Shown: positions 1,943 through 44,618 of the stretch, piece after piece
Layout of the letters: each line of letters opens with the position of its first letter
How positions within the stretch are numbered: position 1 is the first letter of the stretch
Assembly (NCBI GenBank): GCA_016693855.1
Contig: GCA_016693855.1_4844.1
Length of the DNA stretch: 45,498 nt
Source: a phage
Reading direction: 5' to 3' (one strand)
Position numbers and translations under genes: made by a program
Notes under the pieces: generated by a model
The model's database searches: none
Told to the model about the DNA's origin: nothing
What the model saw: only the letters and a program-made list of their open reading frames with translations

Positions 1943-1986
1943 AATCTACACCACAAAATAATACCTGTCAACACCTGTGATATAAT
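1943..1986 (+). promoter_or_regulatory. promoter region with AATCTACACC motif and extended -10 TGATATAAT
   Basis: AATCTACACC at 1943-1952, GTCAACACC, then TGATATAAT ending at 1986, about 37 nt upstream of the major tail gene ATG; same architecture as at 3335-3387. Confidence 0.5.
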
Positions 1987-3334: not shown

Positions 3335-3387
3335 CTTGAATCTACATCACCGCCTCGCAGGTGTCAACACCACTGAGATGATATAAT
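3335..3387 (+). promoter_or_regulatory. promoter region with AATCTACATCA motif, GTCAACACC and extended -10 TGATATAAT
   Basis: Motif at 3339-3349; TGATATAAT at 3379-3387; ~20-30 nt upstream of the tail chaperone start; divergent from the minus-strand morons. Confidence 0.5.
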
Positions 3388-3407
3388 CAACATCAGTCAA
3401 ATTCAGG

Positions 3408-4130: not shown

Positions 4131-6492
4131 AGAAGTCGGCGGAATTGTCTATGAAGTAGGGATGGATGTTAAAGGCCTGAAAGCTGGCGCTACAACAGCC
4201 AATAAGACCTTAGATGACCTTGAATCATCAACCAACAAAACCACAGGCGCGCTTGGCAAGCTGGATAAAAACGCCAGAAATGCTGGTAACGGGATGAAGA
4301 ATGCTGGCGGCGCAGCTTCAGGGCTTAAAACCAGCATGTCGATGCTTGCTGGCGCAATCTCAGTGTCGTTAATCATTGGATGGGGTAAGGCTTTCCTTGA
4401 TATAGCTGATAACATGACACAGCTACAGGCAAGGATAAAAAGGTTAACAGGAGATGCTGAGACCGCGAAGGAAACCTTCAATTCGCTGACAAACATCGCC
4501 TCAACCACTGGCGCAAGCCTCAGCGATACTACGAAGCTGTGGGAAACATTGACGTCATCACTGAAAGAGGCAGGCGCGACAAATGCGCAGGTTCTTAACC
4601 TTACAGATACCCTGCAAAAAATAGGTCGAATCGGCGGGTCATCAACCGAAGAAATGGCGAACGCATTGCGTCAGTTCGGTCAGTCAATAGCATCTGGCAC
4701 AATCCGCGCCGAAGAATTTAACTCCATCCTTGAGCAGATGCCTGAACTTGCGCGCCAGATAGCGGCAGGCCTTGGCATTTCAATGGGTGAGCTTCGCGCC
4801 AGAATGCTAGACGGGAAACTGACGGCGGAAGATGCCCTGAACGCCATTCAGGACAGAACAAGCGTCGTCAATGCTGAGTTTGCAAAACTTCCGCGCTCTA
4901 TATCTCAGGCTACTGGCAGTCTTGAAACATCATTTGCAAAAATGATAGCGAGCATAAACGATGCAACCGGAGCCAGTTCCACTTTTGTTTCTGTTATTGA
5001 TTCCATCACTTCAGCAATAAACAGGCTTACTGGTCAAACTGTAAGTGCGGCAGAGGTTATTTCTGATTTGACGTCAACTGCCGAAATGTTCAGTCGAAGG
5101 GCGAGAACTTGGTCATGGGTTGGCATTGACGGATGGGCGGCACAAAATCAGGCAATAGCAGCGGTAGCAAATCAGGCTGCAACTTTGGTCTCAGATATGG
5201 ATGCCGTAACGAAGTCAACAGGAGAAGCAGCCAAAGCTCAGGCGCATTTGACAGTGCCGAAAGCGGCAGAGAAAGACAAAAAGAAAAAAGGCAAAAGCGC
5301 CGAAGAAAGACAAGCTGAGTCAGTTGCTGAAAAGCTGGAGAAATTACGCCAGCAAACCATGCTCAATGCCACATCTACCAGCGAACTCTCCCGCGAGCAA
5401 GCCATCCTCAATGCGCAGCAATCGCTTGGCAAAGCTGCTACTCAGGAGCAAATAAAACTGGCTGGCGAGTACGCTGCGAAGATTTGGGACCAGAAGAATG
5501 CACTGAAGGAGCAGGCGGAAGCAGAGAAAGAAAGGCAGCGCGTAGAAAAATCATATCATGGGTTGCGCGCCATTGCGTCGCCAACGACTGGCATTGATAG
5601 TGAATACCAGCAGCGCATGGCTGACCTTGACGCATACGCCGCAGCATATCCGCAAAAAATCACAGAGATTGAACAGACTCGCGCAGCAATTGAAGCACAA
5701 TACCGCCAACAGCGAATGGACGCTATGTGGGCTGAATGGCAGCAACAAAGCCTCGGCGCGCAACTGTTCGGTACCGCTCTTGATTCAGCAATGAGTACGG
5801 CATCAAACAGCATCACCGGATTGTTGACAGGTACAATGAGCGTTCAGGATGCTATGCGCAGCCTCGGCTCTACGGTACTTAACTCTCTGGTAAATAGTTT
5901 CGTCGAAATGGGCGTTCAGTGGGTTAAATCTGCGGTCATGGGGCAGACTGCGCAGGTTGCGGCAACGGCAACCACAACAGCGGCGCAAACGGCAGGACTG
6001 GCAACCACAACAGCAGCATCGACGGCGGCGGCAGCCACCACCACGGCAGCATGGACTCCTGCAGCAATCGTAGCATCAATCGGTTCATTCGGCGGGGCAG
6101 CTGCAATTGGGGTAGGTGCCGTTCTCGGAGCACTGGCGATGGGTATTGCTGGTAAGCGTAAAAATGGTGGTCCTGTTAGTGCTGGAAGTATGTACGAAGT
6201 GGGCGAAAATGGCTTGCCTGAAATATTCCAGGCGTCCAACGGTCGCCAGTATATGATTCCCGGTAACGATGGCTCAGTTATCAGCAACAAAGACCTGACA
6301 GGCGGCAGCAGTGGCGTTGTAGTTTATAATAGCATTATCAATAACAGCTCAGCTCAGGTCAGCAGCAGCGCCAGAGATAATGGTGACGGCAGCGTGACCA
6401 TTGAGACGATTGTGAGTGATATTTCGGAAAATGGCCCAATAGGGCAAGCCATCTCAAGAAACTACAACACCAACAGGAGAGCAACCGAATAA
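4123..6492 (+). CDS. tail tape measure protein
   Basis: 789 aa, largest tail ORF; long predicted alpha-helical/coiled-coil regions, Ala/Thr-rich hydrophobic stretch (…AATATTTAAQTAGLATTTAASTAAAATTTAAW…) followed by Gly-rich segment, typical of tape measure proteins. Confidence 0.85.
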   Translation: MAEEVGGIVYEVGMDVKGLKAGATTANKTLDDLESSTNKTTGALGKLDKNARNAGNGMKNAGGAASGLKTSMSMLAGAISVSLIIGWGKAFLDIADNMTQLQARIKRLTGDAETAKETFNSLTNIASTTGASLSDTTKLWETLTSSLKEAGATNAQVLNLTDTLQKIGRIGGSSTEEMANALRQFGQSIASGTIRAEEFNSILEQMPELARQIAAGLGISMGELRARMLDGKLTAEDALNAIQDRTSVVNAEFAKLPRSISQATGSLETSFAKMIASINDATGASSTFVSVIDSITSAINRLTGQTVSAAEVISDLTSTAEMFSRRARTWSWVGIDGWAAQNQAIAAVANQAATLVSDMDAVTKSTGEAAKAQAHLTVPKAAEKDKKKKGKSAEERQAESVAEKLEKLRQQTMLNATSTSELSREQAILNAQQSLGKAATQEQIKLAGEYAAKIWDQKNALKEQAEAEKERQRVEKSYHGLRAIASPTTGIDSEYQQRMADLDAYAAAYPQKITEIEQTRAAIEAQYRQQRMDAMWAEWQQQSLGAQLFGTALDSAMSTASNSITGLLTGTMSVQDAMRSLGSTVLNSLVNSFVEMGVQWVKSAVMGQTAQVAATATTTAAQTAGLATTTAASTAAAATTTAAWTPAAIVASIGSFGGAAAIGVGAVLGALAMGIAGKRKNGGPVSAGSMYEVGENGLPEIFQASNGRQYMIPGNDGSVISNKDLTGGSSGVVVYNSIINNSSAQVSSSARDNGDGSVTIETIVSDISENGPIGQAISRNYNTNRRATE

Positions 6493-7862
6493 TGGCTATC
6501 ATCAAATACCCTGACTGGCTGCCACTGGCACAACGAGCAAGTAAAAACCTGACACAGCAAACCCCGTTCCGCAGCGACCAGCCTGCGGTTGGGGCACCAA
6601 TTTTTCAGAAGCTGACAACTGACATCGCGGCGACATGGAGCCTGACGTGGGTTTTTACACTGGCGGAAGAACGCGCATTTATCCAGTGGTTGCGTAGCCC
6701 AAGTTACCTCAACAAATGCAACAACTGGTTCACCATGAGGGTTGACCTCGGCGGCAGTGGATTACAGGAGCAGACGCTGCATTTTACTGATTACCCGGTG
6801 CAGACCAGTATTGATGGAGGAGTAGTTACGTGGACTGGAAACGTTATTGCTAAAAAACTCAACAACACTATGGATGAGTTCGATGATGTTCTGGTCGAAC
6901 TGGATTACAGATGGTATAGCTGGCTGGATGAAGTAGTTAACCGCGAACTCCCGCAAGTCTATATGACGCCGATATTGCATATGCCAATTAATATGCTGTC
7001 ATCTACTCTTGATAGCCGCATTGTTTACGATGGGCCACAGGTTTACTACATCAACCGAAATGGCAATCTTGTGCAGTCCGCCGCCAATGAATGGCCTCTT
7101 ACGTTCATTGATGGTGTTGCGGTCGGGCGTGTGCCACCAGAATCCACATCCAGCAATATCCTGATTAAATCGTCGAAATTATCTGACGCATCGTGGGTTA
7201 AAACTAGAGCAACAGTGTCTGACGCAGTTGACGGATTTCTAAACGGCGGTACGTTCTCACTAGTCCCGACCCAGACAAACGGCACCCATCTCGTATATCA
7301 ATCGGTGTCTTCCGCTTTTGCGGAGGGTGATGTATACACTCTCAGTTACGTTGCTAAGGCATATGGTTATAATTATGCGAGACTTCGCGCCGCTGATGAT
7401 GCTGGGTTTATCGCGGATTGTGTTGCTAACTTATCGACAGGGGTTATTTACGCGGGCGCCCCCGGCAGCGATATAGCAGAGCTTGGCGATGGTTGGTATC
7501 GATTTACAGAAACGGTAGCTATACGCCAGGGCGGCGCATCTTCTCTGCTTTTAGCGTCATGGGTGTACAACAACTCCGCCGTTGGTTCATTTGTCGGTGA
7601 CGGGGTTAGTGGGATATTAGTGTGCGCGATGCAAATAGAAAAATCACCTTTTGCCACGTCGCCAATAGTAACCGAATCGTCACCGGTAACCCGAACGACG
7701 GCATCAGCAAAAGTAACCATGAATGGCGCGACAAGCATTGACATTACCTACTCCGACGGCTCCGTGATAAACGTTCAGGCTGTTGACGGTTACGCCTCCA
7801 TACCCCAAGCGGATTCGGCGTGGGGTAGCAAGTACATGACAACAATAAAATTCAACGCCTAA
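6492..7862 (+). CDS. minor tail / distal tail protein (putative)
   Basis: 456 aa ORF starting at the tape-measure stop (ATGA-style coupling); position corresponds to distal tail proteins. Confidence 0.5.
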   Translation: MAIIKYPDWLPLAQRASKNLTQQTPFRSDQPAVGAPIFQKLTTDIAATWSLTWVFTLAEERAFIQWLRSPSYLNKCNNWFTMRVDLGGSGLQEQTLHFTDYPVQTSIDGGVVTWTGNVIAKKLNNTMDEFDDVLVELDYRWYSWLDEVVNRELPQVYMTPILHMPINMLSSTLDSRIVYDGPQVYYINRNGNLVQSAANEWPLTFIDGVAVGRVPPESTSSNILIKSSKLSDASWVKTRATVSDAVDGFLNGGTFSLVPTQTNGTHLVYQSVSSAFAEGDVYTLSYVAKAYGYNYARLRAADDAGFIADCVANLSTGVIYAGAPGSDIAELGDGWYRFTETVAIRQGGASSLLLASWVYNNSAVGSFVGDGVSGILVCAMQIEKSPFATSPIVTESSPVTRTTASAKVTMNGATSIDITYSDGSVINVQAVDGYASIPQADSAWGSKYMTTIKFNA

Positions 7863-11206
<3,344 letters not shown>

Positions 11207-11245
11207 TACAATATACATCAAATTCACAAAGGAGCATTTATTATA

Positions 11246-13231
11246 ATGGCTACCACACCAACTAATAAACCAATTCCATCGGAAGATCCGCGCGACCTTA
11301 AGTTTAATGCCGGTAAGATTGACGAGGTAGTGACATCTGATGCGCACTACTATACCGATCGTTTCGGTAAGCGCCGCTGGACTATCGCAGGATTTCAGTA
11401 CACCGCAGAAGAAGCTATCCGTAATTATGGCTACATTACGATGGATAGCTTCGAAGATGGTGCAATACTGACTCTTTCCAATCAGACACTTCGTTATGAA
11501 GCGAACGGGGAATATTATCGCTGGGATGGGGAGTTTCCAAAAATAGTTCCAGCTGGTTCAACTCCAGATAGCACAGGTGAGGTTAAATTAGGGGCTTGGG
11601 TTAGCGTTGGCGATGCATCATTGCTAGCAAGGCTAAAAAGCAATAGTGCTGGTGATGGTGCTTCTCTTGTTACTTTTGAAAGCGGAAATTCTGTTGAAAG
11701 TCTTTCAGATAATGATGGCGCCAAGAACATAGGCAGCGGCGAAAGGAGTTTGCTTGCACGTAACAATGATATTAAGCATTCAGGAGACTTCTCTACTCTG
11801 CAAGCTGCGGTAGATGCATCTTTACCGAAAAATGACTTACTTATTTCCCCTGGTGAATATACTGAAAAAGTTACTATTGGTAACGCACAGTTAAAAGGCG
11901 TTGGCGGGGTCACAGTACTAAAAACTCCGGCAGACTTTACAAACACTGTTCAGGTTAATTTATCGACGCCTCATTGGCAATTCCGCCATAGTAGTGGTTT
12001 TGCTATAGATGGTTCTGGGACAACCGGGAGCGCAGGCATTAGTTTTGACCCGTCAGACCAATATTCTGGCCGACATAATTTTAGTGATTTATACATCCAC
12101 AACATCAACAAGGCCATTCAGAGGCCTTCCGGGAACATCGGCAATACATGGAGAAATATTGGGGTATCTACGTGTGATTGGGGGTATTACGCGATTAGCG
12201 GCTCAGAGATGCATTGCGGTGCTGATACCCTCTACAATATCCACTTCGACGGCATCTCCACCTATGCAGTCTACCTAAACGGCACTGTCGATAACGGTGG
12301 GGTGGGCGCATGGTGGCTTAAAGACTCCATTATTGAGGCTTCCGGAGGCGGCGGGATATACTTAAAAAGCAAATCTGGTGACTGCCCTACATCTCCATGC
12401 GGGGTGTCCAATATATGGATGGAAGCGGTTGCGACATCATCGGCTGTTAATGTAGACGGTGTGGCGCAAAAACCGCGAGTTCTCAAGTTGGTAGACACCG
12501 CGATATTCTTTGCTGAGTATTCGTATCTCAACAACATAGAGTTATCCAACTCCAACTTAGTAACTTATGGTTGCCGTTTCGACAACGCTGATGGTAATCA
12601 GGATATTGTTATTGATGAGCAGAGCACTATTGTAGCCCATGACGTGTATTTAAACGGCAGTTCCGGGAAGGATGTTATTGTAGAGTCTGTTGCATCGCAA
12701 TCTGCAACGATAGCTGCCACAAACTTATCTCTGAGGGGTAACTTAACAAGAGGGAGAGTATTTAACACCCCAACAGGGAATAAATTAATGAGTATCACAT
12801 TTGACTCAGGTAGCCACGAGTTTTCTGGTAGCGCTACAGTTAGCGGCTCAACTGCATCCGACGGGCTTCACGCCGCTACATGTACAGAATTCTCCTTCCC
12901 AGGCGCTGGTTTGTTCGAGATGGTAGCTTCAAGAACGACAATAACATCAGGCAGATGGTATGTTTGGGGCGTCAACTCTCGCCTCCAATCAGGAACAGCA
13001 GATGTGAGTATAACGTCAGGTATTACTATGGGTAGTGTTTACACAAAGACAGGGGAGTGGATTAGCACTTTCGGTGTAGGAAAGGCATCTGCCACTGGCA
13101 CTGTAGCGCTATACGTTTCCACAGGAGGAAGTTCAGGAGCTACGGTCAGATTCAGTGACTTTTTCATAGCGGAATTTACTACGCAAGCGCAAGCTATGTC
13201 TTTCGCCAATTCAAGGATGTCGTTATCATAA
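11246..13231 (+). CDS. tail fiber / tailspike protein
   Basis: 661 aa, last gene of the tail module before a strong terminator; Gly/Asn/Ser-rich repetitive middle portion compatible with a beta-helix; divergent C-terminus expected for a receptor-binding protein. Confidence 0.6.
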   Translation: MATTPTNKPIPSEDPRDLKFNAGKIDEVVTSDAHYYTDRFGKRRWTIAGFQYTAEEAIRNYGYITMDSFEDGAILTLSNQTLRYEANGEYYRWDGEFPKIVPAGSTPDSTGEVKLGAWVSVGDASLLARLKSNSAGDGASLVTFESGNSVESLSDNDGAKNIGSGERSLLARNNDIKHSGDFSTLQAAVDASLPKNDLLISPGEYTEKVTIGNAQLKGVGGVTVLKTPADFTNTVQVNLSTPHWQFRHSSGFAIDGSGTTGSAGISFDPSDQYSGRHNFSDLYIHNINKAIQRPSGNIGNTWRNIGVSTCDWGYYAISGSEMHCGADTLYNIHFDGISTYAVYLNGTVDNGGVGAWWLKDSIIEASGGGGIYLKSKSGDCPTSPCGVSNIWMEAVATSSAVNVDGVAQKPRVLKLVDTAIFFAEYSYLNNIELSNSNLVTYGCRFDNADGNQDIVIDEQSTIVAHDVYLNGSSGKDVIVESVASQSATIAATNLSLRGNLTRGRVFNTPTGNKLMSITFDSGSHEFSGSATVSGSTASDGLHAATCTEFSFPGAGLFEMVASRTTITSGRWYVWGVNSRLQSGTADVSITSGITMGSVYTKTGEWISTFGVGKASATGTVALYVSTGGSSGATVRFSDFFIAEFTTQAQAMSFANSRMSLS

Positions 13232-15416: not shown

Positions 15417-15428
15417 AATCTACATCAA
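15417..15428 (-). promoter_or_regulatory. TTGATGTAGATT motif copy (minus-strand orientation) upstream of nuclease gene
   Basis: Plus strand reads AATCTACATCAA at 15417-15428; same motif as at seven other intergenic sites. Confidence 0.4.
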
Positions 15429-15850
15429 CCCAAATCAAAAGGCAAGCCAAAATAGAAAAGTGTGGCTTTTTTTAGTTCGTCAAGACCGTAAGCGATGGCA
15501 GCATAATGACCAAGCCTGCACATCTCAGTTAACACAGCGGATTGCTCTTTGCTAACCCTGCTTTTGCTTTTATCGCGGCGCTTTGCTTCAATCATCCCGC
15601 AACTGTGATTTACTCCCGGCGTCATTATCACATTGTCGCCTATTCCAGTCTTAACCCCCATTTTCTGGCGCTTCAGCACAAACTGCACCCTGCTTGATGT
15701 GCCAGTTTCGTTGGGTACATGAAACCACAGAACATCAGGGAAGCGGTGTTGCATCCATGTACCGTAACCCATCTGATCAGTCTCCTCTTTCGGGCATTCT
15801 CCGCGATAACCGCTATCAAATACCCATATGCCGCTATCAAGCTGCTTCAC
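15425..15850 (-). CDS. VRR-NUC domain nuclease
   Basis: 141 aa; …GIGDNVIMTPGVNHSCGMIEAKRRDKSKSRVSKEQ… fits the VRR-NUC (PD-(D/E)xK) pattern of a hydrophobic strand-Asp followed by ExK and a downstream Q. Confidence 0.65.
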   Translation of the reverse strand: MKQLDSGIWVFDSGYRGECPKEETDQMGYGTWMQHRFPDVLWFHVPNETGTSSRVQFVLKRQKMGVKTGIGDNVIMTPGVNHSCGMIEAKRRDKSKSRVSKEQSAVLTEMCRLGHYAAIAYGLDELKKATLFYFGLPFDLG

Positions 15851-18292: not shown

Positions 18293-18354
18293 TTTACGTT
18301 ACCCTCATTCAGTGTTACGCTTAAAGCATACAAACAGTAACAGATGGAGTCAAC

Positions 18355-21601: not shown

Positions 21602-21793
21602 GTCAAATCCTCATTCTGGAATCTGTATATTACTATATAGAAAGCAATGGAGAACTTCAATACCGCTGCTCTTAAATCACAAAGGTAATGGATAGCACAA
21701 ATTGCTAAAATCTATGCTACCTGTTTATTCGTTTCGTGGTATATTTCAGTCATCAACACGCAAGTGCTTGACAGTTAAAAGAAAAATCAAAAA

Positions 21794-22268: not shown

Positions 22269-22297
22269 TTGACGTAGAATTGTTATTGATGTAGATT
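22269..22297 (+). promoter_or_regulatory. early rightward promoter: TTGACG-N17-TAGATT built from two tandem TTGAYGTAGAWT motif copies
   Basis: TTGACGTAGAAT at 22269-22280 and TTGATGTAGATT at 22286-22297; the TTGACG of copy 1 and TAGATT of copy 2 are spaced 17 nt apart like sigma70 -35/-10 elements; ~30 nt upstream of the first rightward ORF. Confidence 0.5.
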
Positions 22298-22327
22298 GAA
22301 CTCATCGAAACAAACGAGGATGAAGAG

Positions 22328-23022: not shown

Positions 23023-23489
23023 GTGAAGTTAAAACATATGAAGTAAACTGCAACGACGCGTGGCTTAATACAGCTGGCGATGACATCTCTGGCTCATATG
23101 TTAAGTATGCTGATTACATGGCTCTTGCAACAAAACTCGATTTAGCCGAACGTGCTTGCGCGGAGCTGGCGGCGGAGAATGTGGGGCTAAAGACGATATG
23201 TGATGACCGTCGCAGGTTCATCATGAATGGGGTGCAGATGGGTTATATCAAGGTTCCAGCAGCGGAAACAGATCCAGACCTTGAGACAATTCGCATTGCT
23301 ATATCACCACAAAAGCCCATTCCAGCCACAGATGCTTTCCTGGATGAAGTACGTGCGCAGGGCGTGGATATGGCTCGTAACGCGATGATTGATTTTGTCG
23401 ATGGTGAAGTTGGGCCAAACAAGAACGTTCCGGGGCTGATTAGAGGCGCAGAGATATGCGTAAGTATTGCTGAACAGCTTCGCAAATGA
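23019..23489 (+). CDS. hypothetical protein
   Basis: 156 aa ORF, overlapping stops/starts with neighbours (ATGA). Confidence 0.5.
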   Translation: MSEVKTYEVNCNDAWLNTAGDDISGSYVKYADYMALATKLDLAERACAELAAENVGLKTICDDRRRFIMNGVQMGYIKVPAAETDPDLETIRIAISPQKPIPATDAFLDEVRAQGVDMARNAMIDFVDGEVGPNKNVPGLIRGAEICVSIAEQLRK

Positions 23490-27206: not shown

Positions 27207-27223
27207 ATCCGCACCACCACACT

Positions 27224-27262
27224 TGACCAATCTACACCGAGCGCATAGTATAATCTACATCA
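27224..27262 (+). promoter_or_regulatory. promoter: TTGACC-N(16-19)-TAGTATAAT overlapping two AATCTACA(C/T)C motif copies
   Basis: TTGACC 27224-27229, AATCTACACC 27229-27238, TATAAT 27249-27254, AATCTACATCA 27252-27262; ~20 nt upstream of ATG 27283. Confidence 0.5.
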
Positions 27263-27282
27263 GGCTTACCGGAGATATCACT

Positions 27283-27489
27283 ATGCGCAGCTATGCAGGA
27301 TTTACACAGGAGGAAAAAGAGCAGGTTTACTCACTGGCGCGGGCTGGTGTGCCAGACGAGGTGATTTGCCGTCGGTATGACATCGACGAGGACTTCCTGT
27401 TGCGCGTTCTGGATGATGTCTTCGTTAACCTGCAAGAGAAGCGTGGATATAAGGGTATCTGCTGCAAGAATGATTTTTTGAGAGGGTGA
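27283..27489 (+). CDS. hypothetical protein
   Basis: 68 aa from ATG 27283 (GGAG 9 nt upstream); the longer track ORF from 27223 would start inside the promoter. Confidence 0.4.
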   Translation: MRSYAGFTQEEKEQVYSLARAGVPDEVICRRYDIDEDFLLRVLDDVFVNLQEKRGYKGICCKNDFLRG

Positions 27490-29064: not shown

Positions 29065-29074
29065 TGATATAATG

Positions 29075-32891: not shown

Positions 32892-33051
32892 CACCAACCT
32901 CACTTAATATATTCAATAATTTCGCATTCACGCATCTGCACCAGACCAAATGGCGCAACAACCTTGCCGCACGGACGTCAAGGTTGAACACTCCGCAGCG
33001 TCCGTTTTCTTTGAATTTGACCATTACCATGACTTATCCCTCGCTAATAAC

Positions 33052-33109
33052 TTGATGTAGATACTATGCACCACCACTCAATCTACGTCAATAGTCATTG
33101 TGATAGAAT
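33052..33109. promoter_or_regulatory. divergent promoter region with inverted motif pair TTGATGTAGATA ... AATCTACGTCAA and extended -10 TGATAGAAT
   Basis: TTGATGTAGATA at 33052-33063 and AATCTACGTCAA at 33080-33091 form an inverted pair; TGATAGAAT at 33101-33109 precedes the lysis operon; on the minus strand TTGACGTAGATT-N-CATAGT could serve the leftward operon. Confidence 0.5.
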
Positions 33110-33135
33110 TAATCATTATTTGAACAGGAGGCAGG

Positions 33136-33414
33136 ATGAAACTATCGCAACGCGGCATGGAGACGCTTGGAATCGCCGATGCAGTGGATATATCGCCTTA
33201 CATCACCACCGAGACAACACAAAATCAGTTTGATGCACTGACAAGCCTCGCCGCCGACATTGGCATTGACACTTTCCGCAAATCAACGCTTCTGAAGAAA
33301 CACAATCTCCGCTGCTTCTCATGTGTCGCCGCGCATTTCATCGTGTGGGGCGAGAAGACTGGCGACAAAGTAAAACGCAAAGCTGAAAAAGAGGTTTACT
33401 GGTATGGCTATTAG
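33136..33414 (+). CDS. lysozyme-like protein with internal deletion of catalytic region (possible remnant)
   Basis: 92 aa; C-terminal half (…TQNQFDALTSLAADIGIDTFRKSTLLKKHNL…FIVWGEKTG…) aligns with the C-terminal lobe of P22 gp19/T4-type lysozymes as I recall them, but ~55 residues including the catalytic Glu/Asp region appear absent. Confidence 0.45.
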   Translation: MKLSQRGMETLGIADAVDISPYITTETTQNQFDALTSLAADIGIDTFRKSTLLKKHNLRCFSCVAAHFIVWGEKTGDKVKRKAEKEVYWYGY

Positions 33415-35721: not shown

Positions 35722-35766
35722 TTGACGTTTCTACATCACTTAGTCAATACTTATTGACGTAGATTG
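35722..35766. promoter_or_regulatory. divergent promoter region with TTGACG / TCTACATCA / TTGACGTAGATT motif copies
   Basis: TTGACG 35722-35727, TTTCTACATCA 35728-35738, TTGACGTAGATT 35755-35766; lies between divergent operons (35694 leftward, 35794 rightward). Confidence 0.5.
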
Positions 35767-35793
35767 TACCATAACGGAAAAGGTGATGTGGAA

Positions 35794-38049: not shown

Positions 38050-38386
38050 TTCCATTACTGTGGATATTATCAGCCTACGCATTCGCGAGAGTATTTGAGG
38101 CTGACACTCTGTATCAGATGATTTGCTATGGCGCTCTGTTCTGCCTGTCAGGTGCTGCACTTACATTTATGGATGATGTAATTTCAGACTAACACCGTAT
38201 ATGTTTTGTTCATCATGGGCTGCTATCATTTAATCAGGAGGTAGCCCATGAACATAATCCCTATCACTTTCTTTCTCACACTCTACGCACTCACCAATTC
38301 GCCATTGTTTGCACTGGCTACCGCCTCATGGTGCTATATCTCCCTGTGTTATAATTCGACCACAAACTAACCGTGGAGAGTTAACC

Positions 38387-42476: not shown

Positions 42477-43013
42477 CTACAGGCGCATCGGCATAACAAC
42501 AATCTTCGCAGTCTCGCCAGATGGCGCACTAAGGCAGCAAACTGCGGCATTTGTATTTCCATTCAGTTCAAATTTGACACCACAGAATTTTGGATTAAAT
42601 AGCTTGGCGCACTTCTCAACATCAGCAAGGTATTTAGCGTTAAATCCGATTTGCTCAGTTGGCGAAGTCTGTTTTGGTATAACGCGATCAATATCAGGGA
42701 ATCGACCGTCAATAATGTTACAGATACCAGCACCTACCATTAACTCTGTATCATCATGGTACGTGACCATTTTTGTTTTGGTATCCAGCACCGCATAATC
42801 ATAGCGCTTAATTGGCGACTTACTGACTGATACAATGACGCTGTCTGTCAGTTTGTTGTCGTGCTTGCCACCAACAAACATCCTATGCCCATCAGTTGAC
42901 GCAACGCGACCATCTGGCATGAAGCAAATACCGTTCAGATAGTAACGCACATCATTCTTTGCCTGAAACATCAATGCGCCTTCGAGTAATAACTTGCTGA
43001 TTTTTAATTTCAT
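42477..43013 (-). CDS. truncated DNA polymerase III beta sliding-clamp (DnaN) homolog
   Basis: 178 aa from ATG 43013 (AAGGTG RBS). Ordered matches to E. coli DnaN as I recall it: FQAKNDVRYYLNG (DnaN ~150), ASTDGHRMF (~172), DGRFPDIDRVIPK (~240-253), IGFNAKYLADV (~325) and the C-terminal …IVVMPMRL (DnaN ends …YVVMPMRL). Domain I and the first half of domain III are absent. Confidence 0.7.
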   Translation of the reverse strand: MKLKISKLLLEGALMFQAKNDVRYYLNGICFMPDGRVASTDGHRMFVGGKHDNKLTDSVIVSVSKSPIKRYDYAVLDTKTKMVTYHDDTELMVGAGICNIIDGRFPDIDRVIPKQTSPTEQIGFNAKYLADVEKCAKLFNPKFCGVKFELNGNTNAAVCCLSAPSGETAKIVVMPMRL

Positions 43014-43186
43014 CACTTCACCTTAATCATATGTTGTTTTGCAACCTTGAGGCACTCTTCAAAAATGCCACCCTTCTTTGCGCTCTGATTGCGCTTGTAA
43101 TACTGAATTGCCGCATCAATTGCCATCTGGTCGATGTCCGTCAGCTTGGCGCGAAGTTGTTTTTCGATGAATTGTTCTGGTGTCAT
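43013..43186 (-). CDS. hypothetical small protein (57 aa)
   Basis: ATG 43186 with AAGGA RBS; stop overlaps the DnaN-like start (TGATG); below ORF-track size cutoff. Confidence 0.35.
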   Translation of the reverse strand: MTPEQFIEKQLRAKLTDIDQMAIDAAIQYYKRNQSAKKGGIFEECLKVAKQHMIKVK

Positions 43187-43398: not shown

Positions 43399-44208
43399 TC
43401 ACATCTTTTCCAGAATTGCCATAACCTCGTGAATATCAGCAACAGGAATCTGGATAAACTCCTCATCCTCTGCCACCACATGACCAGCAGGTAGAATCAC
43501 ATGGTCTGCTGGCTTCAATAACTCGATCAGGCGGTCTACTGGCTTAATCTTTTTCGACTTCAGCACTTTGGCTGTGACCTTGTCCTTGCCTTGTGCTTTG
43601 GCCTCTTCGACTGCCTCGTCGATAACTTTAACCGCATCATCGCCATGTTCACGCGTTACTGCTACGGCATTTGCATAGCTGATTTGTCCTGCACTGATGC
43701 GCGCTTTTACTTCTGCTGGCACATCACCCAGCGACAGGTGCATTTGCACGTCAGATACTGAGCGGCCTACCTTCTTGGCGATTTCTTCATTTGTCCAGCC
43801 AAATCCTTTCAATCGCGTGTAAGCCTTTGCACGCTCAAACGGGTCAAGCTGCTTGCCCTGACTGGATGACACCATGAAGGCGATTTTGTCCGCCTCGTCG
43901 CCAGTGAAATCCTTGCACTCAATGCGAACGATTGGTGCGCCGCGTTCAATGGCTCGTAGTGCACCAAGATAGCGATGCTGACCATCAAGAATGCGGATTC
44001 CTTTGTCGTCAGGGATAACTGTTAATGCTGGCAATGGCTGACCTGATTCCCAGCACTGAGCGAAATATTCAACGTGTTGCTCATCTGCTTCACGGATGTT
44101 ATATCCCGGCTCCAGATAGATTCGCTCCACTGGCACGAGATAGGTTTTGTTAACAGCAATACCGTTGCGCGTTTCTTTGTCTGAATAGATTTTGCTTAGT
44201 GTTTTCAT
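43399..44208 (-). CDS. ParB-like protein (ParB N-terminal nuclease-like domain + HTH)
   Basis: 269 aa; …IRILDGQHRYLGALRA… matches the ParB/Srx-fold arginine-containing box; …FGWTNEEIAKKVGRSVSDVQMHLSL… is HTH-like; no ParA partner in the window. Confidence 0.7.
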   Translation of the reverse strand: MKTLSKIYSDKETRNGIAVNKTYLVPVERIYLEPGYNIREADEQHVEYFAQCWESGQPLPALTVIPDDKGIRILDGQHRYLGALRAIERGAPIVRIECKDFTGDEADKIAFMVSSSQGKQLDPFERAKAYTRLKGFGWTNEEIAKKVGRSVSDVQMHLSLGDVPAEVKARISAGQISYANAVAVTREHGDDAVKVIDEAVEEAKAQGKDKVTAKVLKSKKIKPVDRLIELLKPADHVILPAGHVVAEDEEFIQIPVADIHEVMAILEKM

Positions 44209-44557: not shown

Positions 44558-44618
44558 GTTTCTACGTCACTAACTATAAACGCACCATCAATCTACGTCA
44601 ACAGGAATGTGCTAAAAT
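44558..44618. promoter_or_regulatory. divergent promoter region with TTTCTACGTCA and AATCTACGTCAA motif copies and extended -10 TGCTAAAAT
   Basis: Motif copies at 44558-44570 and 44590-44601; TGCTAAAAT at 44610-44618 ahead of a 39-aa basic ORF (44649-44768). Confidence 0.5.

Follow-up and report, generated by a model that had tools for sequence, protein, structure and literature searches.

A short word, nTGAYGTAGATT, is embedded in about nine to ten host-type promoter cassettes that head almost all transcription units outside the replication units of the phage genome analysed here, including the cassette at positions 33052-33109, and its conservation exceeds what recognition by host sigma-70 needs. 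Judging from the DNA sequence, and with somewhat more belief than doubt, we take this word to be an operator, superimposed on sigma-70 promoters, at which one regulator encoded by the phage binds DNA sequence-specifically. The DNA examined (the window, meaning the whole stretch of 45.5 kb) is a nearly complete siphophage genome. Its relatedness to Salmonella phage Skate, Shigella phage Sf11, Escherichia phage swi2, Vi II-E1, seszw, and INT55 is mosaic, at 88-90% nucleotide identity; its close relatives belong to the genera Skatevirus, Swiduovirus, and Cedarrivervirus. A Pfam scan of 60 proteins recognised tail, portal, capsid-related, lysis, exonuclease/ERF/SSB, helicase, primase, and several HNH proteins, and gave no match to an integrase, a CI-type repressor, or an RNA polymerase, nor any lysogeny module. 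The phage, Skatevirus/Swiduovirus-like by these comparisons, therefore appears to be virulent and must use the host polymerase. A promoter for a phage-encoded RNA polymerase was rejected as an explanation of the word, since no polymerase-like protein was found and the large proteins are structural, replicative, or without a match.

The word recurs at the heads of transcription units

Allowing up to two mismatches, TTGACGTAGATT matched the window 13 times compared with 3.4 ± 1.6 times in dinucleotide shuffles, and none of 100 shuffles reached 13, which is the outcome of a genome-wide scan against shuffled controls that the first-pass annotation of this DNA had proposed. With the core TGAYGTAGATT and at most one mismatch, 13 matches were found versus 0.9 in shuffles. 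Twelve of these 13 lie in intergenic DNA, which makes up 8% of the window (about 1e-12 by our own binomial estimate), in agreement with the intergenic location first noted. An unbiased count likewise ranked the 8-mers of the motif as the most enriched intergenic 8-mers, with AATCTACA (6/6) and GACGTAGA (5/5) exclusively intergenic.

All copies listed in the first-pass annotation are present, two of them at corrected positions (35754 for 35755 and 44559 for 44558), and with two further, degenerate copies between genes (3385 and 11210) the total rises to 15 across nine intergenic regions (Table 1). Its statement that the motif marks nearly every intergenic promoter region also held, as nine of about eleven promoter-type regions bear the word; only the two promoters of the replication operons, near 18330-18353(-) and 21637-21660(-), lack it, both with good hexamers. 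Pairing is usual, with mostly two copies per promoter in direct or inverted arrangement, 17-31 base pairs (bp) apart (17, 23, 26, 28, and 31 bp), and the copies at 33052 and 33080 do form an inverted pair between divergent units. The information profile yielded nTGAYGTAGATT, in which positions 2-12 hold 1.1-2.0 bits each, position 1 is weak, and the flanks hold about 0.1-0.5 bits; the TAGATT half is essentially invariant at all six bases. A search of the whole window against Rfam gave no matches, so the word belongs to no known RNA element.

Predicted sigma-70-type promoters carry the word in four registers

A sigma-70 weight-matrix scan of both strands of the whole window placed its four best scores at 44601(-) (TTGACG-17-TATAGT), 3367(-) and 1971(-) (both TTGACA-17-TAGATT), and 22269(+) (TTGACG-17-TAGATT, as originally described), all of them motif sites. 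High scores were also obtained for the word-bearing sites 27223(+), 33091(-), and 15445(-), and all seven are intergenic and face a gene. They show the layout of sigma-70-type promoters, in which such hexamers stand 16-18 bp apart, or an extended -10 takes their place, upstream of a gene in the same orientation.

The place of the word within them differs. In a first register the word is itself the -35 and is followed by N11 and the -10, as in TTGACGTAGATT-N11-TATAGT; this arrangement is found at 22269, 33080(-), and 44590(-), and relatives alone show it in two more classes. In a second, exemplified by TTGACA-N11-GTGRTGTAGATT, the TAGATT half is the -10 behind a TTGACA or TTGCCT -35 (1943(-), 3339(-), and 15417(-)), and it is also the -10 at 22286. 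In a third, the word lies antiparallel at the start of the spacer, right behind the -35 (27229 and 35728), and in a fourth it lies over the -10/+1 in either orientation (27252, 33052, 35754, 44559, and the degenerate copies 3385 and 11210), the AAT of an inverted word being the end of the -10 hexamer (TAnAAT-CTACRTCA). The proposal that TTGACG serves as a -35 is therefore right for 22269, 33080(-), and 44590(-) and wrong for the remaining copies, which take other registers. Nor does the motif generally read TTGAYGTAGAT along transcription: the copies at 27229/27252, 35728, 33052, 3385, and 11210 are antiparallel to the promoter that they overlap.

Two cassettes serve both directions with one 12-mer. 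At 33080 and 44590, a single copy stands N11 from a leftward -10, for which it supplies the -35, and 8-9 bp (N11-12 with TGn) from a rightward extended -10 (TGATAGAAT and TGCTAAAAT, respectively) that has no -35.

Table 1. Positions of the word, of the promoters and cassettes that hold it, of extended -10 sites, and of candidate regulator genes in the window
Feature	Coordinates	Strand	Sequence and remarks
Motif copy	1943-1954	(-)	GTGGTGTAGATT; -10 of the next entry
Promoter TTGACA-N17-TAGATT	1943-1971	(-)	Score 14.2, joint top; reads into non-coding 1508-1942
Extended -10 TGnTAnAAT	1978-1986	(+)	
Motif copy	3339-3350	(-)	GTGATGTAGATT; -10 of the next entry
Promoter TTGACA-N17-TAGATT	3339-3367	(-)	Heads leftward unit 3315->2772 (superinfection immunity, DUF551)
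Extended -10 TGnTAnAAT	3379-3387	(+)	TGATATAAT; tail operon
Degenerate motif copy, newly added	3385-3396	(-)	CTGATGTTGATT; on the + strand overlaps -10/+1 of the tail operon's extended -10
Extended -10 TGnTAnAAT	11204-11212	(+)	TGATACAAT; before tailspike gene
Degenerate motif copy, newly added	11210-11221	(-)	TTGATGTATATT; on the + strand overlaps -10/+1 of the extended -10 at 11204
Motif copy	15417-15428	(-)	TTGATGTAGATT; -10 of the next entry
Promoter TTGCCT-N17-TAGATT	15417-15445	(-)	Heads exonuclease/ERF/SSB unit
Double-motif promoter	22269-22297	(+)	TTGACGTAGAAT-N5-TTGATGTAGATT; heads unit 22328->27206
Motif copy	22269-22280	(+)	TTGACGTAGAAT; -35 of the double-motif promoter
Motif copy	22286-22297	(+)	TTGATGTAGATT; -10 of the double-motif promoter
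Promoter TTGACC-N17-TAGTAT, two inverted copies	27223-27263	(+)	Heads 68-aa gene and portal operon
Motif copy	27229-27240	(-)	TCGGTGTAGATT; in the promoter, AATCTACACCGA fills the spacer start
Motif copy	27252-27263	(-)	CTGATGTAGATT; in the promoter, AATCTACATCAG follows the -10
Candidate 2, 68-amino-acid (aa) three-helix protein resembling a helix-turn-helix (HTH), family unknown	27283-27489	(+)	AlphaFold2 predicted local distance difference test (pLDDT) 74.5
Extended -10 TGnTAnAAT	29065-29073	(+)	
Motif copy	33052-33063	(+)	TTGATGTAGATA; inverted to the leftward promoter, just past its -10, over predicted +1; nearly invariant in 35 relatives
Motif copy, perfect	33080-33091	(-)	TTGACGTAGATT; -35 of leftward TTGACG-N17-CATAGT (-10 at 33063-33068); overlies the rightward lysis promoter's -35 region as well
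Extended -10 TGnTAnAAT	33101-33109	(+)	TGATAGAAT; rightward lysis-operon promoter, 26 bp before ATG at 33136; 12-mer ends 9 bp upstream
Divergent cassette	35722-35771	both	Rightward TTGACG-N18-AATACT
Motif copy	35728-35739	(-)	GTGATGTAGAAA; inverted TTTCTACATCAC in the rightward spacer
Motif copy	35754-35765	(+)	TTGACGTAGATT; direct, at rightward +1
Extended -10 TGnTAnAAT	35763-35771	(-)	TGGTACAAT; leftward promoter of the divergent cassette, overlaps the 35754-35765 copy
Candidate 3, MarR-like winged-helix protein, 162 aa	36702-37190	(+)	PHROG 1687 'MarR family' 4e-57; weak Pfam MarR_2
Extended -10 TGnTAnAAT	38347-38355	(+)	
Candidate 1, ParB/KorB-family HTH protein, 269 aa	43399-44208	(-)	Pfam HTH_ParB 2.6e-11, KorB 7e-6
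Bidirectional cassette	44559-44618	both	Leftward TTGACGTAGATT-N11-TATAGT (-10 at 44573-44578), score 14.2; heads ParB-like operon
Motif copy	44559-44570	(-)	GTGACGTAGAAA; second copy, at leftward +1
Motif copy	44590-44601	(-)	TTGACGTAGATT; leftward -35
Extended -10 TGnTAnAAT	44610-44618	(+)	TGCTAAAAT; rightward, 8 bp from the 12-mer; heads head-tail operon

Extended -10 sites of the form TGnTAnAAT without a -35 make up a second promoter class in the window, with nine of 12 occurrences intergenic. Seven of the nine stand 26-36 bp before plus-strand starts of structural, portal, capsid-region, or lysis genes, and Klebsiella phage KpV2811 likewise has ten intergenic sites, eight of which precede gene starts by 23-42 bp. 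The class probably comprises late promoters. The lysis-operon site is overlapped by GATAGAATTAATCATTATT (33102-33120), which by our own count agrees at 14 of 19 positions with the E. coli Fur-box consensus GATAATGATAATCATTATC and is kept in nearly all of 35 aligned relatives; the likeness may be due to chance in AT-rich promoter DNA. Behind the TAGATT -10, the promoters 3339(-) and 22286(+) share a 5' leader, (C)TCATCGAAAC(A)AACGAGG (window 3351-3370 and 22298-22320), which also stands behind further double-motif promoters in relatives and may be a common translation or stability element.

The word is conserved among related phages

Around 250 related loci were retrieved, from which 14 genomes were reassembled; together with the near-complete swi2 locus and the KpV2811 record, these gave 16 relatives and, with the window, the 17 genomes counted here. 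Each of the 17 carries 13-20 copies of TGAYGTAGATT (at most one mismatch) compared with 0.9-2.3 in shuffles. In KpV2811, whose core proteins are about 50-80% identical, there are still 13 intergenic copies in matching architectures, and the word also occurs in another clade, whose ParB-like protein is 72% identical. It is absent from phages with a 50-66% identical endolysin and from elements with a ParB homologue of 45% identity.

Comparing orthologous cassettes showed that the second copies, which had not been used for sequence selection, are invariant, while the 5-11 bp between copies vary by up to 45%. In the 22269 cassette, for example, the intervening N5 varies by 35-45% among relatives and both copies are fixed. 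TAGATT is even kept as a mere spacer beside a TTGACG -35 whose true -10 is 17 bp away, in the classes 33080, 44590, and KpV2811 46168, and relatives hold 46 instances of the class to which the degenerate 11210 copy belongs. In relatives the core is also found as compact palindromes: GTAGATAATAATCTAC and GTAGATAAGTAATCTAC in one clade (L216-L218), in which GTAGATAATAATCTAC is part of the promoter immediately ahead of the ParB-like gene, and GTAGAATGATTCTAC in place of the 35754 copy in 14 loci, including DS8, VSt472, and SB28. Across the 17 genomes, a short word with unconserved flanks is thus kept on several promoters beyond what the polymerase needs, as is expected of an operator.

Because the word is common to phages of Salmonella, E. 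coli, Shigella, and Klebsiella, a shared transcription factor or nucleoid protein of the Enterobacteriaceae, whose site the phages exploit, is conceivable. Against such a host factor, the motif is not shared by more distantly related phages of these hosts (L033-L048 and L221-L224), and to our knowledge the word is unlike the consensus of DnaA, IHF, Fis, CRP, Fur, LexA, MetJ, NarL, PhoB, OmpR, or ArcA. We consider this origin very unlikely.

Accessory-gene modules beside the cassettes are swapped among relatives, and the boundary between conserved and variable DNA is often within about 40 bp of the word (22269, 27229, 44559, 1943, and 35754). At 33.0-33.1 kb, an 85-bp block with both copies and the rightward -10 hardly varies among 35 distinct sequences, and the leftward gene adjoining it (on the side of 32892-33051) is replaced by one of several unrelated genes. 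In the window, the leftward genes that swi2 and others have behind the 27229/27252 copies are missing by deletion, so that these copies abut the end of the terminase gene. Conserved promoter cassettes that flank highly variable modules recall the PeSLs of T4-like phages, composite promoter-terminator motifs at module junctions (PMC4122927), and the word might accordingly be read as a recombination linker offering short homology for accessory-module swaps. In contrast to PeSLs, however, the word has no stem-loop part, and 11 bp are short for homologous exchange. Homology breakpoints are fourfold enriched throughout intergenic DNA, and gaps that bear the motif show no surplus (48 per kb, versus 45 per kb in motif-less intergenic regions), on which grounds the cassettes were rejected as preferred recombination junctions. 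A linker role would, moreover, be a by-product of conserved promoters and not their primary function, and as an explanation of the word it is highly improbable.

A protein-binding site is favoured over promoter sequence or activator box

The word could instead be a pure promoter consensus, in which preferred -35 (TTGAYG) and -10 (TAGATT) sequences are read by host sigma-70 without any dedicated regulator and have spread by cassette duplication and gene conversion. The best sigma-70 scores all fall at motif sites, TTGACG is the -35 at 22269, 33080, and 44590, and TAGATT is the -10 at 1943, 3339, 15417, and 22286. Several cassettes are also paralogous, as 1943 and 3339 share GGTGTTGACA...TGATATAAT, and 3339 and 22286 share the leader described above. 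Yet the bases that sigma-70 barely reads (G, A, and T within TAGATT; YG after TTGA) are invariant, whereas the first T of the -35 is not, and the flanks of the 11-mer are unconserved between cassettes, so that copying of whole cassettes fails to explain the pattern. Overall, we regard a pure consensus as improbable.

A protein site is favoured over a bare promoter element because that first T is the least conserved base of the -35 while all six bases of TAGATT are fixed, because TAGATT is kept beside TTGACG where the real -10 is 17 bp off, and because unselected second copies are invariant although the DNA between them varies. In addition, copies run antiparallel to the sole promoter present, and the compact dyads of the relatives, meaningless to a polymerase, suit a dimeric DNA-binding protein. 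The first-pass annotation had offered either a phage-specific promoter class or a shared operator for a phage regulator. Each option is right in part. The link to promoters is real, as the four best sigma-70-type scores show, although the motif takes more than one role and register within them; the operator half of the suggestion, with a putative binder, is favoured by the fixation of all of TGAYGTAGATT, by TAGATT being invariant even as a spacer, and by the palindromes in relatives.

At 33080/33101 and 44590/44610, the 12-mer covers about -35 to -24 of the rightward promoters and ends 8-9 bp before TGnTAnAAT, with no -35 there, and the same layout was found in KpV2811 at 23023 and 35063. This resembles the middle promoters of T4, in which a MotA box at -30 stands with a sigma-70 -10 that is often extended, and would fit an activator or sigma-appropriation element, where a factor on the 12-mer recruits or remodels host polymerase and turns on the extended -10 structural and lysis promoters. 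The 12-mer is 11-12 bp from the -10 hexamer in both directions, and the fixed geometry of the MotA type (11-13 bp to the -10, no -35) is seen at 33101, 44610, and the two KpV2811 sites. Elsewhere, however, the distance from core to -10 ranges over 10-18 bp and the orientation varies, many copies lie over the -10/+1 in a repressor position, and the extended -10 promoters at 29065 and 38347 lack the motif. Unlike in T4, the word is a near-consensus -35 on the other strand, and the scan of 60 proteins gave no match to MotA- or AsiA-like families. An activator of this kind is quite unlikely in our estimate.

For the operator that we favour, the variable register points to occlusion or repression rather than to an activator of fixed geometry, and since the word fuses a -35-like TTGAYG to a -10-like TAGATT, overlap of operator and promoter is guaranteed. 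Indeed, the copies overlap the -35, spacer, -10, or +1, where a bound protein would compete with polymerase. A regulator made from an early operon would bind the copies and occlude the -35 and -10/+1 of strong consensus promoters, most of which read leftward into accessory and early genes, and the outcome would be early shut-off together with autoregulation. At 33080 and 44590, the leftward promoters (accessory genes and the ParB-like operon, respectively) need the -35 of the word and the rightward ones (lysis and head-tail operons) have none, so that an occupied 12-mer is expected to silence the former and to spare or favour the latter. We infer that the two cassettes may thereby act as an early-to-late switch.

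Three candidate regulators are encoded in the window

As the binder of the word, we would tentatively guess at the ParB/KorB-family protein encoded at 43399-44208 (Table 1), while granting that this is doubtful. It combines an N-terminal ParB/Srx domain with an HTH, as ParB-family proteins do, and it matches Spo0J (4.7e-13, the alignment covering residues 41-202), Noc, and KorB in the PDB. Its identity of 98-99% in 14 of 15 relatives places it with the best-conserved proteins of the clade. The HTH, GWTNEEIAKKVGRSVSDVQMHLSL, stays the same in motif-bearing clades at 82% and 67% overall identity, and the recognition helix is altered in homologues of 46-47% identity whose loci lack the motif. The promoter of the gene itself always carries the word, in palindromic form in one clade. 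A separate parS-like palindrome for this protein was rejected, as the window holds no other repeated palindrome that could serve as a ParB-like site and its intergenic palindromes are GC-rich terminators.

The 68-aa HTH-like and the MarR-like proteins are alternative candidates. The former is 90-100% identical in 14 of 15 relatives and 53% identical in KpV2811, and its gene lies behind a promoter with two inverted copies; a fold search with its model gave NarL, GerE, CENP-B, and resolvase HTH domains as the best hits, all weak (E > 0.2). The MarR-like protein is only 36% identical in KpV2811 despite the same motif there. A PDB sequence search returned nothing significant for either protein.

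Several points weigh against an operator bound by such a regulator. ParB, KorB, and MarR proteins normally bind palindromes (of 13-16 bp in ParB-parS and KorB-OB systems), but the word is asymmetric in the window; compact palindromes of its core, such as GTAGATAATAATCTAC, do occur in relatives. The spacings of paired copies, direct or inverted, show no helical phasing. The N-domain of the ParB-like protein reads DGQHRYLGA where the canonical GERRYRA (the GERRxR cytidine triphosphate (CTP)-binding motif) is expected, which makes CTP-clamp behaviour doubtful, and, of the ParA or KorA partners of such systems, no ParA-type ATPase was matched among the 60 proteins scanned. The link between HTH conservation and presence of the motif may reflect mere phage relatedness, as proteins of this kind tend to be best conserved in their HTH; the distant ParB homologues (L221-L224) have another genomic context and no comparable repeated word, so that the co-variation adds only the loss of the motif. 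Moreover, copies also overlap the tail and tailspike promoters (3379 and 11204), which leaves a simple early-gene-repressor model incomplete. Because the word consists of -35-like and -10-like halves, many of them used as such, part of its conservation is plain promoter function. Finally, a literature search on this phage group returned no binding, transcription-start, or expression data for any member.

A bolder form of the idea, which we put forward as speculative and rather improbable, is that a strictly lytic phage uses a ParB/KorB-family protein to switch transcription across its whole genome. As a flexible dimer on paired, asymmetric, promoter-mimicking half-sites (TGAYGTAGATT) in any orientation, the protein would shut early -35-dependent promoters and pass the shared cassettes to extended -10 late promoters. 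If true, a ParB-type protein would be used in temporal gene control and not in DNA segregation, and its binding to the word would extend KorB-type global regulation to virulent phages.

Comparison with known regulatory systems

The P1 C1, RK2 KorB/KorA, L5 stoperator, and T4 MotA systems share some traits with the word and differ from it in others. The operators of P1 C1 are an asymmetric 17-bp word with more than ten copies genome-wide, single or paired, on the promoters of many separate operons, through which one protein controls the whole genome. The word studied here is likewise dispersed and asymmetric and overlaps the promoters of many operons in single or paired copies; in contrast, P1 is temperate and its 17-bp word is different, and the window phage shows no integrase or lysogeny module and no recognised C1-like protein. 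The stoperators of L5 gp71 form a 13-bp class of asymmetric sites, spread in many copies over short gaps between genes; one copy overlaps a -35 (TGTCAA, the complement of TTGACA). Stoperators all point the same way with respect to transcription and block elongation in the prophage. Here, too, an asymmetric word has many intergenic copies and overlaps a -35, but its orientation is mixed, it lies in promoter cores, and the phage is apparently virulent, no integrase or CI-type repressor having been found among the proteins scanned. KorB of RK2, a ParB-family protein, is a global regulator that acts through about a dozen promoter OB sites, with the small HTH partner KorA at the -10 (PMC11790492). 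The window phage similarly encodes a ParB/KorB-family protein and a small HTH-like protein, whereas OB is a perfect 13-bp palindrome, and here the word is asymmetric, the canonical CTP motif is not conserved, a ParA/IncC partner was not found in the proteins scanned, and binding is putative.

The word was not found described in a literature search by motif string, genus, and phage name, the genome paper of Vi II-E1 lying outside the reach of that search. A regulon motif in host-type promoters is a familiar kind of device, which appears to be undescribed for this phage group. The group (Skatevirus, Swiduovirus, Cedarrivervirus, and Klebsiella relatives) counts more than 200 sequenced genomes and is used in typing, biocontrol, therapy, and genome-reduction work. 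One 11-bp word on almost every promoter, together with an extended -10 class before structural and lysis genes, gives these genomes a ready-made transcription map, along with three candidate regulators and precise engineering targets for the timing of payload expression and for safe deletion boundaries.

Other features of the window

Directly downstream, on the minus strand, of 1971->1943, one of the top-scoring promoters, lies a non-coding stretch, 1508-1942 (430 bp, of note above all 1627-1775), with no open reading frame above 44 aa and no Rfam match. Its minus-strand RNA folds with z = -4.0. The inner block of about 150 bp, bounded by the 9-bp inverted repeat GTTGTGGTG...CACCACAAC, is 96-100% identical to sequences in unrelated phages, namely lambdoid mEp460, P1-like RCS47, Stx2 phages, and several Klebsiella phages. 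In some relatives a tRNA gene occupies this slot, and a tRNA search of the window found none. The stretch may be a mobile non-coding RNA or a MITE-like (miniature inverted-repeat transposable element-like) element.

At 42477-43016(-), a 179-aa protein gave weak matches to domains 2 and 3 of the DNA polymerase III beta clamp (E 3e-4 and 7e-3, respectively). Annotations of this protein conflict, with the homologue in KpV2811 named 'DNA polymerase III beta subunit' and that in swi2 RusA-like. Two large proteins of the tail region, a 456-aa protein (6492-7862) and a 661-aa tailspike with a Tail_spike_N domain (11246-13231), have no counterpart in 15 close relatives over half of their length, and are probably host-range determinants that set the window phage apart.

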